A stretch of 54,508 nt of DNA from an uncultured virus (IMG/VR IMGVR_UViG_3300027801_001720) (Duplodnaviria; Heunggongvirae; Uroviricota; Caudoviricetes). The notes under the pieces were generated by a model, which did not search any database, was not told the DNA's origin, and worked only from the letters and a program-made list of their open reading frames with translations. Both the position numbers and the translations under genes were made by a program. Location: IMG/VR virus record IMGVR_UViG_3300027801_001720. One strand, 5' to 3'. Positions 535 to 3,597 of this stretch are shown piece by piece (position 1 is the first letter of the stretch; each line of letters opens with the position of its first letter).

Positions 535-564
535 ATTATACTACCATTTCCTATTGATTGTCAA
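535..564 (-). promoter_or_regulatory. sigma70-like promoter for the helicase, embedded in the 3' end of the receptor gene
   Basis: TTGACA-N18-TATAAT on the minus strand, 5 nt before the ATG at 529. Confidence 0.6.
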
Positions 565-2205
565 CTGAAATTCTCTACCTTGACTAGAATAGCCTGGCAG
601 GACCTCTACTTCTTCGTCTAACACGTTCTTGACATTAAGTGATAGTTGTACCATGTCATTGAATGTCTTAGTGTAGCCGAAGTTTAATTTTTCTAAGTCT
701 TCTAACTCTGCACCGTCATATGGTCCAGGCTTTCTATCGTATGTACCTGTGTAAGAAGCATTAACATTATGTGTACCAAAGTCTTGGTCATAACTTAATA
801 CTGCAACATACTTAGGTACTCGTGCTTGTATGGTGTCTGTTGCTTTAAGCATTATACCAAAGTTGCCAAACGTCTGTGCATACCTAATACCTTTTGTGCT
901 GTATGCACCTGTATTATAATACTTTGCATTAGTCCAAGTAGAAGTCGGTTCTTCGCCTTCAGCAATTATGTCTGGAGTTGAAAAGCCTGACATGTACTCA
1001 ATGGATTCTTCAAAGTCGTATACAAATATACTTAATACCCCAAATCCTAGTTCATAGCCTACTGCTTCTTCTGGACCCAAGTCTAGATTAGCATCTACAT
1101 AACTATCGCCATATAGTTCATATAAGTTAGGTCGTCTGTAACTTGTACCAACGTTAAAAAATAATGGTCCTTTTTCTACACCAAATCTCATAGCATCTTG
1201 ACCTTCGTTACCTCGTCTAAAACCAAAGTTATAGTTTAAGGCAAACTCGGCATTAATGTTTAAGTAAGCACCATAGTTATCTCTCTTATGTTGATTATAC
1301 TTTTCTTGACTAGCATCAACACCATAAGAAACTTGAAGTTTCTGCGATAGGTTTGTTTGGTCGCCAAGTCTCATATAGTCTGTACTACTTTCATTTTCGT
1401 AAGACATGTAATCGGCTGTGAAGTAATCTGACTGCTGATACGTTCTTCCTAATGTTAAGTACTCGTTATTAATTGCAACATTATACTTCTCGCCTTCTTG
1501 TACACAATCATTGGACTGTGAAAAGTCTGCTGTATAGCAGTTGTCGTATTCATATGAAAAGTCTGTGAGCTTTGCTGTAATAGTAAAGTCCTGAACATCC
1601 ACATTAAGTTTAACATTCTTATTTGAGTACTCATCTTTTTCTGTGTTATCGTTTCTTACTTGATTGTTCACACCTAATTCTGTGTACTGTATCCATGTTG
1701 TTGGTGCTAAGTTTAAATACCTATATCCGTTATTACCTGCTCCGGCTGTAATTCCTTTGTTAATAGTATCTTTAATAAGTACTGTTCCAGCAATACTGCC
1801 TGAACCATATACAACACTATTTGCACCAGTGATTATTTTAACAGTCTCACCTGTTATAATATCTGCACCAAAGTTATACCATGCTGACCCGGGCTCATTT
1901 GCTGGTATACCATTTCGGTAAACTGATGTATGTATTGTTTGAGCACCACGCTCGTTGTAACCTTGGAATGCTCCATAGCCGCCGGCGGTCCATGTGTGCA
2001 TGGGTGCTATTGCTTCTATTAGGTTGCTGTCTTGTAGTGGGTCTGTTTGTTTTACTTTTATTTGTTGTGCCACTACCACAACTTCCTCTATCTCTTCTGC
2101 TTGAGTTTTAAACGATATTGCCATCAATACCATAACTACAAAGACAAGATATAAAGGACTTAAATTGATGTGGAAATTCCAGTCAATTTTTTTACTCACT
2201 TTCAT
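541..2205 (-). CDS. TonB-dependent outer-membrane receptor (BtuB-like architecture)
   Basis: Signal peptide ending TQA, TonB box EEVVVVA, plug motif IITGANSVVYGSGSIAGTVLI, barrel motifs SYRRPNLYELY and NLDLGPE, C-terminus NVLDEE...GREFQLTINRKW. GGAG RBS. Confidence 0.88.
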   Translation of the reverse strand: MKVSKKIDWNFHINLSPLYLVFVVMVLMAISFKTQAEEIEEVVVVAQQIKVKQTDPLQDSNLIEAIAPMHTWTAGGYGAFQGYNERGAQTIHTSVYRNGIPANEPGSAWYNFGADIITGETVKIITGANSVVYGSGSIAGTVLIKDTINKGITAGAGNNGYRYLNLAPTTWIQYTELGVNNQVRNDNTEKDEYSNKNVKLNVDVQDFTITAKLTDFSYEYDNCYTADFSQSNDCVQEGEKYNVAINNEYLTLGRTYQQSDYFTADYMSYENESSTDYMRLGDQTNLSQKLQVSYGVDASQEKYNQHKRDNYGAYLNINAEFALNYNFGFRRGNEGQDAMRFGVEKGPLFFNVGTSYRRPNLYELYGDSYVDANLDLGPEEAVGYELGFGVLSIFVYDFEESIEYMSGFSTPDIIAEGEEPTSTWTNAKYYNTGAYSTKGIRYAQTFGNFGIMLKATDTIQARVPKYVAVLSYDQDFGTHNVNASYTGTYDRKPGPYDGAELEDLEKLNFGYTKTFNDMVQLSLNVKNVLDEEVEVLPGYSSQGREFQLTINRKW

Positions 2206-2262: not shown

Positions 2263-2284
2263 GTTAATTAATATCTTATTTTAT

Positions 2285-2318
2285 AAAAGGTGAAGCCCCG
2301 GAGTAACTCCGAGGCTTC
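2285..2318 (-). terminator. Intrinsic terminator after the ATPase gene
   Basis: GAAGCCUCGGAG-UUA-CUCCGGGGCUUC, a 12-bp stem with one G-U pair, followed by ACCUUUU. Confidence 0.7.
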
Positions 2319-2319
2319 G

Positions 2320-2370
2320 TGGTGCTCTACTTGGGGGATGACTAACGTTGAGCACCAGGGAAACGTTAGC
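2320..2370 (-). ncRNA. Candidate H-type pseudoknot or switchable 3'-UTR element
   Basis: Stem 1 pairs 2362-2370 with 2341-2349 (9 bp). Stem 2 pairs 2350-2357 with 2320-2327 (8 bp). The stems are interleaved. Confidence 0.5.
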
Positions 2371-2383
2371 AATATTAATTATC

Positions 2384-3424
2384 CTATATAGTACCTTTCA
2401 TACAAGTAGTCCTGGCGAGCTTCTCCCAATTAGCAGGATCCATTTTTCTAAGATCCGCAATCTTCAAAACCATTCTCAAACTTATCTCTCTAAGTACTTC
2501 CTGGTTGCCAGTCATAAAGTCGATAACTTCTCTGTCACCTTCTTTACCAAACTTGTATTCATCAAGCATACCGTCTTCAACGATTTGGTTGATTCTAAGG
2601 AACTTGTCTCTCATGGAGCTCATTGTAAGATCCAAGTAGTGACATCTTGACATCAATGCCGCCAAGTGATCCTTAATCTTCTTAGAACGAACGTTCTCAA
2701 AATCAACGTTAGTAATAAAGATACAACCACCTTTAAACTCAAACCTATCTGGAATTCCTTCTCTTCGAAGTGCTTGGGACTCTGACTTCCAAGTAATAGT
2801 TCTCTTCTTACCTGAGTCCAAAGTAGCCTTCAACATGTTCAGACATACTTCATCAAATAATACACTATCACAATCATCAAATACTAATATGTTACCCGCC
2901 GCACTATTATTATATAGTGTCTGGAATAAACCAATTGGAGTAACTGAACCTTTAACAACTTCAGTTCTTGCAGGCTTGCCAGCAACTTCTGTTAGCATGT
3001 CATAATCTTCTAAAACAGTTTCAACACCAAATGACTTACCAACTCCTGGAGGGCCACTTACTATCATACCACGTACCGTACCTTCTGCTACAGCATGAGT
3101 CATACGATCCAAAATATCAAAACGTTCTCTGATACGCTCAATTGCTTGAACATCAGTTTCTGCTTTTTCCTTCTTTGGAGTATTATCTATTTTAGGCTGT
3201 TCAGCATAAACACTTGGAGTAACATACTCTAAGTCTTGTGTAGGATCTTCTATTAAAATCCTAATGCTTGAAAACTTCTCACCCATTGCTTCACTACCAT
3301 CAACGGTAATAAATGCACCTTTCTTGCCAATGTTAAGTGGCTTTAAGATTGGAAATACTGTATCAACGATTTCGTTTTTACGGTAAGTACCAGTCTTGAT
3401 CTTTACATAATTCTGCTTTGTCAT
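2384..3424 (-). CDS. P-loop (AAA-like) ATPase
   Basis: Walker A GPPGVGKS, Walker B ILVFDDCD, sensor-1 IFITN, Arg finger ALMSR. Confidence 0.85.
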   Translation of the reverse strand: MTKQNYVKIKTGTYRKNEIVDTVFPILKPLNIGKKGAFITVDGSEAMGEKFSSIRILIEDPTQDLEYVTPSVYAEQPKIDNTPKKEKAETDVQAIERIRERFDILDRMTHAVAEGTVRGMIVSGPPGVGKSFGVETVLEDYDMLTEVAGKPARTEVVKGSVTPIGLFQTLYNNSAAGNILVFDDCDSVLFDEVCLNMLKATLDSGKKRTITWKSESQALRREGIPDRFEFKGGCIFITNVDFENVRSKKIKDHLAALMSRCHYLDLTMSSMRDKFLRINQIVEDGMLDEYKFGKEGDREVIDFMTGNQEVLREISLRMVLKIADLRKMDPANWEKLARTTCMKGTI

Positions 3425-3482
3425 ATTGTCATCCCCGACTAAATGATTATTGTTAATAAGCCCTTCTTACTAACTTGTATAT

Positions 3483-3597
3483 ATTATACTAAATTTCTGG
3501 ACCAATGTCAACCTTTTACCGTTTTTATTGGAATCTTTTTCCAGTCCTTTATTGTTTAATATGTATATATTATACCGGATTTCCTGGCAGAAGTCAA
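3483..3597 (-). promoter_or_regulatory. Two tandem consensus sigma70 (early) promoters
   Basis: TTGACA-N17-TATAAT (3511..3483) and TTGACT-N17-TATAAT (3597..3569), both followed by ATATACA. Confidence 0.8.

Follow-up and report, generated by a model that had tools for sequence, protein, structure and literature searches.

In the icaR mRNA of S. aureus, the Shine-Dalgarno (SD) sequence pairs with a C-rich motif of the UCCCC type located in the 3′ UTR, and both RNase III cleavage and repression have been demonstrated (PMC3868564). In the type I toxin-antitoxin systems aapA3/IsoA3 and hok/sok the SD is likewise sequestered, once transcription has ended, by a distant 3′ anti-SD, with weak local hairpins at the ribosome-binding site (RBS); the full-length RNA is inert from the start, since translation is already prevented co-transcriptionally, and trimming of the 3′ end activates it (PMC6733600). 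In the hbs mRNA of B. subtilis, a 14-bp pairing between 5′ and 3′ UTR modulates how RNase Y cleaves the leader (PMC5737220). For artificial anti-RBS sites in the same species, Gill et al. report that 8-12 nt located hundreds of nucleotides away lower translation and half-life in vivo, that genes are normally depleted of such words, that the effect fades with distance, that an anti-RBS 8-mer between pairing segments or hairpins has little or no effect, and that only 44% of the protein is lost beyond 500 nt (PMC12697547). The natural bacterial 5′-3′ UTR pairings named in the corresponding section of a review are RNAIII, icaR and hbs, none of those given there being from a phage (PMC7821165). Our literature search, which covered few subscription papers, found no paper on the element described below or on such a pairing in phages. 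The motif is also absent from six supplement files of a viral csRNA catalogue (PMC10690425), other files of which may list the local structure.

The locus studied here lies in a stretch of 54,508 nt (the window), a fragment of an uncultured marine jumbo phage with terminase, sheath, UvsX-, UvsY- and gp32-like genes nearby. The gene concerned encodes an AAA+ ATPase that matches phrog_1250 (E 8e-83, full-length homology) and shares 33% identity over 269 aa with T4 NrdC.10, in which an AAA motif has been noted (PMC1524935); the T4 gene also stands behind an early-type promoter, and no 5′-3′ match was found in it. As in icaR, the 3′ UTR carries an anti-SD motif whose sequence is complementary to the mRNA's own RBS; for icaR, too, action in cis or in trans is left open, and displacement of a weak 5′ structure by the 3′ end has been proposed there. 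Unlike icaR, this is an early phage gene with a short, structured UTR of 100 nt and with the motif in a knot or hairpin loop, and the complementarity shows deep covariation across many lineages; the motif of icaR, by contrast, is missing even in S. epidermidis (PMC7821165). The sites of Gill et al. are artificial, whereas the present one is natural and selected for. With hbs the locus shares a short end-to-end mRNA helix, but here the SD would be masked rather than cleavage in the leader modulated.

Differences from the type I systems are larger. These combine an antisense antitoxin with a small toxin encoded by an RNA of 225 nt (PMC6733600), whereas here the product is a 346-aa AAA+ ATPase instead of a small toxic peptide, the RNA measures 1.2 kb, and the predicted order is ON then OFF. 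As regards an antisense antitoxin RNA, promoter-like sites on the plus strand reach 9/12 only and stay at chance level (18 found, 19.5 expected). The analogy with hok and aapA drawn in the original prediction goes no further than a resemblance: the product differs, and the pairing comprises 9 bp and is not extended. By this comparison icaR, not a type I toxin-antitoxin module, is the closest known system. The features of the locus are:

3569-3597, minus strand: distal sigma70-type promoter, TTGACT-17-TATAAT (11/12), from a motif scan; present in 9/33 close relatives
3483-3511, minus strand: proximal sigma70-type promoter, TTGACA-17-TATAAT (12/12), from a motif scan; putative start near 3476
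3452-3474, minus strand: 5′-UTR hairpin 1, 9 bp with loop AAGGG, seen only in the window's subclade
3428-3439, minus strand: RBS mini-hairpin, a short stem presenting a G-rich loop; stem covaries in clades A and B
3428-3436, minus strand: RBS 9-mer GGGGAUGAC, predicted target of the 3′ element, ending 3 nt before the ATG
2384-3424, minus strand: NrdC.10-like AAA+ ATPase, 346 aa (ORF call, phrog_1250, T4 NrdC.10 homology)
2362-2370, minus strand: 5′ arm of pseudoknot stem S1 (conserved part 2364-2370), mimicking the start-codon region targeted in some relatives
2358-2363, minus strand: loop L1 (2361-2358) and second C-rich loop UUCCC, from conservation in clades A and B
2350-2357, minus strand: 5′ arm of pseudoknot stem S2 (folding, covariation)
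2341-2349, minus strand: 3′ arm of S1, its final two bases starting the anti-RBS
2334-2342, minus strand: anti-RBS 9-mer GUCAUCCCC, exact complement of 3436-3428
2328-2340, minus strand: pseudoknot loop L3 (computed coordinates)
2320-2327, minus strand: 3′ arm of S2 (folding, covariation)
2283-2318, minus strand: intrinsic terminator hairpin with U-rich tail, 12 pairs (2318-2292), -22 kcal/mol

The predicted structure of the ATPase (pLDDT 92) consists of a small N-terminal beta barrel and an AAA+ module. In a fold search many AAA+ clades matched the module equally well (best Z 12.6, rmsd 3.5, 210 aligned), and the barrel alone gave SH3/KOW barrels as best, weak match (Z 4.8), with no Foldseek match at E ≤ 0.001; since these matches are unspecific or weak, no function was assigned from the fold. 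The barrel is lost or replaced in several lineages (ATPases of loci L202-L248, 270-305 aa) in which the 5′-3′ match is retained, so it is not required for the proposed RNA control. Directly past the ATPase terminator, a promoter at 2262-2235 precedes a gene for a 554-aa TonB-dependent receptor-like protein with a Plug domain (541-2205, minus strand). Assignment of a host from GTDB bins was abandoned: the matches were scattered over many unrelated taxa and were read as binned phage contigs.

The geometry of the original prediction was verified throughout: an H-type pseudoknot with stems of 9 and 8 bp and loops of 4, 0 and 13 nt begins 13 nt past the ATPase stop, entirely on the minus strand, and is followed by the terminator. 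Recomputation likewise returned 2342-2334 as the exact complement of the gene's own RBS, 1.1 kb away and 3 nt before the AUG. In the 54.5-kb window the 9-mer occurs exactly only twice, at the RBS and as the complementary site in the tail; with one mismatch 6 were found and 4.2 expected, so the word by itself is not enriched in the window. With the loop as probe, the own start region ranked first of 63 window genes (-19.0 kcal/mol; next -14.4, mean -8.7), and pairing of own start with own tail at ≤ -13 kcal/mol occurred in 1/57 window genes, the ATPase. The element was single-copy in 5/5 records, and the own RBS was the best target among 290 genes of a clade-B record and 241 of a clade-C3 record; these genome-wide ranks come from relatives in 20-kb tiles, with tile-edge genes, including the ATPase of record G002, left out. 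When metagenomes were searched with the motif first, 45 of 55 matches lay 36-48 nt behind the ATPase, one was truncated upstream and nine lacked the scaffold.

Viral contigs were scanned five times, with the ATPase or with relatives of it as query, which yielded 254 loci, some contigs being represented twice. A complete frame and a callable start were present in 237 (window included) and enough flank in 235, giving 154 distinct start/tail pairs; in L006 and L011 the start was called at the second ATG, with the RBS still inside the scored region. Own-start pairing reached ≤ -13 kcal/mol in 130/154 distinct loci, against 23.7% of cross-cluster swaps and 23/564 neighbouring genes. The motif differs in at least six lineages, and in each the two sides match one another. 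Written as RBS/tail, the pairs are GGGGAUGAC/GUCAUCCCC in clade A, GUGGGAGG/CCUCCCAC in B, GGAGGAGCAA/UUGCUCCUCC in C, GGAGAGAG/CUCUCUCC in C2, AGGAGUAACUAU/AUAGUUACUCCU in C3 and GGAGCGAA/UUCGCUCC in D, with CAUCCACGCAAA/UUUGCGUGGAUG as an example from a single lineage. Each motif state paired best with its own tails; the diagonal of the motif-state matrix read -20.0 (A1), -17.2 (B), -17.3 (C), -15.1 (C2), -17.7 (C3) and -15.2 kcal/mol (D). In a fixed register anchored on the shared GGA, which fixes some helix columns within a clade by construction, columns -2, -1, 3, 4, 5 and 6 change two-sidedly between clades. Single helix columns also vary within clades, with G-C 27, G·U 6, A-U 1 and 7 breaks in B and U-A 1, U·G 2 and C-G 1 in C3. 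In a quick tree built from 79 of the 154 proteins, A1, B, C3 and D each made up one side of a well-supported branch; the data therefore represent a handful of independent transitions, not 130.

Insertion of genes downstream of the ATPase leaves the site next to the terminator, at the end of the operon (L244 at +28 versus L239 at +1122); L207 (+236) and L208 (+1210) are weaker cases. The pairing of L244 runs through 12 bp upstream of the SD. Judged by these comparisons, the match of the tail to the initiation region of its own gene is under selection. Covariation between RBS and 3′ element, which the original prediction proposed to look for in homologous loci and whose absence it named as counter-evidence, is present, and the complementarity is conserved. 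The prediction is partly supported as a whole: the selected pairing of the 3′ element with its own RBS is upheld, and the repressive role is one that we infer.

Not every lineage carries a match, which makes the signal weaker when counted per protein cluster (16/27, p 0.021, or 6/11, p 0.32). Among distant loci from GTDB bins 10/30 distinct ones passed (45 returned; background 14%). In T4, KVP40, Acj9 and Muldoon no 5′-3′ match was seen within 90 nt, and the best sites within 2.5 kb were no better than the reverse strand; the operonic lineage L257-L272, L216 and L233 had no convincing site in the flank scanned. The only cultured candidate is PA5oct gp126, in whose tail (L095:2650-2695) the 3′ arm of a hairpin can form 12 bp (4 G·U, -14.2) with the gene's own start region, although this site is itself part of a local hairpin, which makes the case ambiguous. 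The hairpin loop of this tail resembles an RsmA site. A CsrA/RsmA site at the RBS was considered more generally and rejected, as the motif fits A3 and the PA5oct 3′ hairpin, not clades B, C and D. For the first non-Watson-Crick pair flanking the helix, A·C was counted 35 times and G·U 8 times, opposite to expectation; little weight was placed on this count because the flanks belong to local stems, which fix them.

The pseudoknot is confined to the window's clade, where its two crossing stems find support in covariation. Among 31 clade-A sequences, pairs in S1 alternate between G-C (24) and A-U (7) and between G·U and A-U (21/10), and in S2 two pairs are swapped in a single sequence; 0/500 shuffles reached this covariation and slid controls were lower, the independent events being few and within clade A only. 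As the two outer-loop pairs that bring S1 to 9 bp are unpaired in 18/31 and the first S2 pair in 14/31 sequences, the conserved knot amounts to about 7+7 bp. Since the S1 5′ arm resembles the start-codon region, the mRNA 5′ end can displace it. Outside clade A the anti-RBS stands in a plain hairpin loop, in the terminator loop or in a free stretch at the stop codon. The tails of L021, L396, L405 and L410 contain an extra short hairpin between S2 and the terminator, both of which are left intact. A second C-rich loop, UUCCC, is kept in 31/31 matched A1/A2 loci and 35/59 clade-B loci though the main anti-RBS changed between these tails; it complements the invariant GGGA core, and pairing simultaneously with the main site is impossible. 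The suggested Rfam search gave no family match at gathering score (best E 0.31 in the window, none in 7 homologous loci).

On the 5′ side, a sigma70-type promoter lies 60-97 nt upstream of the ATG in 33/33 close relatives. Both consensus promoters of the original prediction exist, but the second is kept in 9/33 close relatives only. In cross-lineage comparison, the pseudoknot and the twin promoters are best read as lineage-specific additions to a conserved core, the RBS pairing. The RBS mini-hairpin of 3-4 bp is supported by 27 cells with two-sided changes among 40 distinct A and B sequences (0/500 shuffles), its closing pair being U·G in 21 and C-G in 16. An RBS within a covarying hairpin together with an anti-RBS in a 3′ loop points to a loop-loop (kissing) geometry. 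Pairing between the loop of 5′ hairpin 1 and L1 was discarded, as it is not conserved. The stretch 3540-3597 (minus strand) consists of the distal promoter, an AT-rich leader and then purine-rich sequence resembling an RBS, without a start codon; it resembles the promoter-leader cassettes heading early genes in G002 and is possibly the relic of a lost gene. At L311 (G013:160001-180000), about 20 near-identical sigma70 promoter-leader-RBS cassettes occupy 10 kb, each before a short ORF and many with a GGAGC-type RBS, and the ATPase is among them.

The anti-RBS was more unpaired than GC-matched windows in 121/130 loci, by nested folding with the knot outside the model. When the putative 1194-nt transcript was folded, the nine long-range pairs reached P 0.54-0.69, with the program forced to break S2; unfolding both 9-mers costs 3.4 kcal/mol versus -18.6 for the duplex. 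Pairing of start with tail exceeded that of every CDS window in 18/18 homologs folded (of 29 chosen; all 18 from the matched set). No promoter or terminator was found on the minus strand of the window between the ATPase CDS and the 3′ motif. RNA-library contigs, which carry neither strand nor ends nor level, cover the ATPase gene in 4/4 runs, and one relative's contig spans 2326-2629, across stop and element, which as a contig cannot prove a single transcript. Uncovered bins flanking the unit were not taken as transcript ends, and runs with a small share were excluded from the habitat reading.

We consider it fairly probable that the element pairs in cis after transcription ends, competes with the 30S subunit, and thereby lowers re-initiation on the ATPase message and accelerates its decay. 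Host RNA polymerase would start at the strong early-type promoter, and the RBS, in its weak hairpin, would stay accessible during synthesis of the 1.1-kb message. Once the 3′ end emerges, the pseudoknot or hairpin would present its C-rich loop, which may nucleate on the G-rich RBS loop by kissing; this contact would zip into a helix of 9 bp (9-13 bp in relatives) over the SD, partly displacing S1. A core of 9-13 bp is short for an RNase III substrate. The helix would compete with the 30S subunit, cut re-initiation and probably hasten decay, so that output would be front-loaded and self-limiting, as icaR and engineered long-range anti-SD sites suggest. Dampening seems likelier than complete silencing or an all-or-none burst because of the 44% loss beyond 500 nt, and the small effect of sites flanked by pairing segments, in Gill et al.

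A role in trans appears rather doubtful. The 3′ UTR would then be processed into a terminator-protected sRNA (or a second mRNA would serve) that binds the RBS of the ATPase and of other phage or host genes via two C-rich loops, as negative feedback on an early regulon. Such loops are present in clade A and much of B, two to three motif copies occur in D and tandem CUCCU repeats in C, and the stable knot and terminator would be expected to withstand decay. Clade A combines a nearly constant 3′ element with a drifting 5′ target: pairing is shifted onto the start codon in A2 (12 loci), and in A3 (2 loci) just 5-7 bp are kept (-11.7), a score bettered by at least 10 of the 458 other start regions. 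The cis partner is therefore not the only constraint on the element. Each clade-D record has 2-10 genes headed by the RBS word, which early-promoter genes share (reversed control 0), and the ATPase itself ranks 10/385; perfect targets of the GGGAGCGAA type, however, were dropped because they occur in 1/5 records only. On the other hand, the own RBS is unique and ranks first in A1, B and C3, the minus strand gave no internal promoter from which a separate RNA could start, and the covariation follows the gene-specific RBS, which would be needless for a host-directed sRNA. The one better phage target found, csgF of G002 (-18.3), was rejected because the match is not conserved in homologs; the gene (L285:19161-19703, minus strand) is a phage homolog of CsgF (curli secretion) with about 50 viral-contig relatives, and its start region matches the element in this one lineage only.

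A closed loop that sustains translation, and does not just block it, is in our judgement quite unlikely. Finishing ribosomes would melt the duplex by the RBS in a self-coupling manner, or the duplex would protect the 5′ end from nucleases as in hbs, whose 14-bp pairing modulates RNase Y cleavage (PMC5737220); the message would be active while ribosome traffic lasts and locked once it lapses. In 32/130 matched loci (B, C3, D and three other lineages) the anti-RBS indeed begins no more than 10 nt from the stop codon and often overlaps it, but the distance past the stop is 32-43 nt in the window's clade and as much as 1.1 kb in operon forms, beyond reach of a terminating ribosome, and the helix covers the SD itself. 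Elements of several readings could be combined in a traffic-gated switch, in which kissing locks the message when initiation lapses, terminating ribosomes reopen it, and in some lineages the tail also shuts other early genes sharing the RBS word, timing the early-to-late transition; such a switch is conceivable, yet we would not expect it.

It is very improbable that the repeats act as DNA, as an operator or recombination site co-evolving with a DNA-binding protein, with incidental RNA folds. Core helices are almost purely Watson-Crick, the flank count favours A·C over G·U, and DNA-acting initiators are among the many proteins that the AAA+ fold resembles; however, one-sided changes within the helix are G·U on the coding strand, the motif is shown unpaired in covarying hairpins, and the repeat is always inverted, tied to the transcript end and able to shift register onto the start codon. 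Chance pairing of any C-rich tail with any purine-rich RBS is hardly credible and already largely refuted: cross-cluster swaps do reach ≤ -10 in 61%, but specificity is diagonal over six motif states, letters outside the SD covary as well, the pairing of L244 lies upstream of the SD, and neighbouring genes score in 4% only.

Control by pairing of mRNA ends is known from few bacterial genes, and the natural cases are presented in the review section cited above without deep evolutionary support (PMC7821165). The cis pairing proposed here supplies a natural compensatory series over 1-2 kb, and the matched natural pairs with their swaps make long-range masking of an RBS under ribosome traffic directly testable, in abundant aquatic jumbo phages. 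The element also offers a compact, portable, self-limiting expression part. For the phages themselves, the finding suggests that the dose or timing of NrdC.10-like ATPases is under strong selection.
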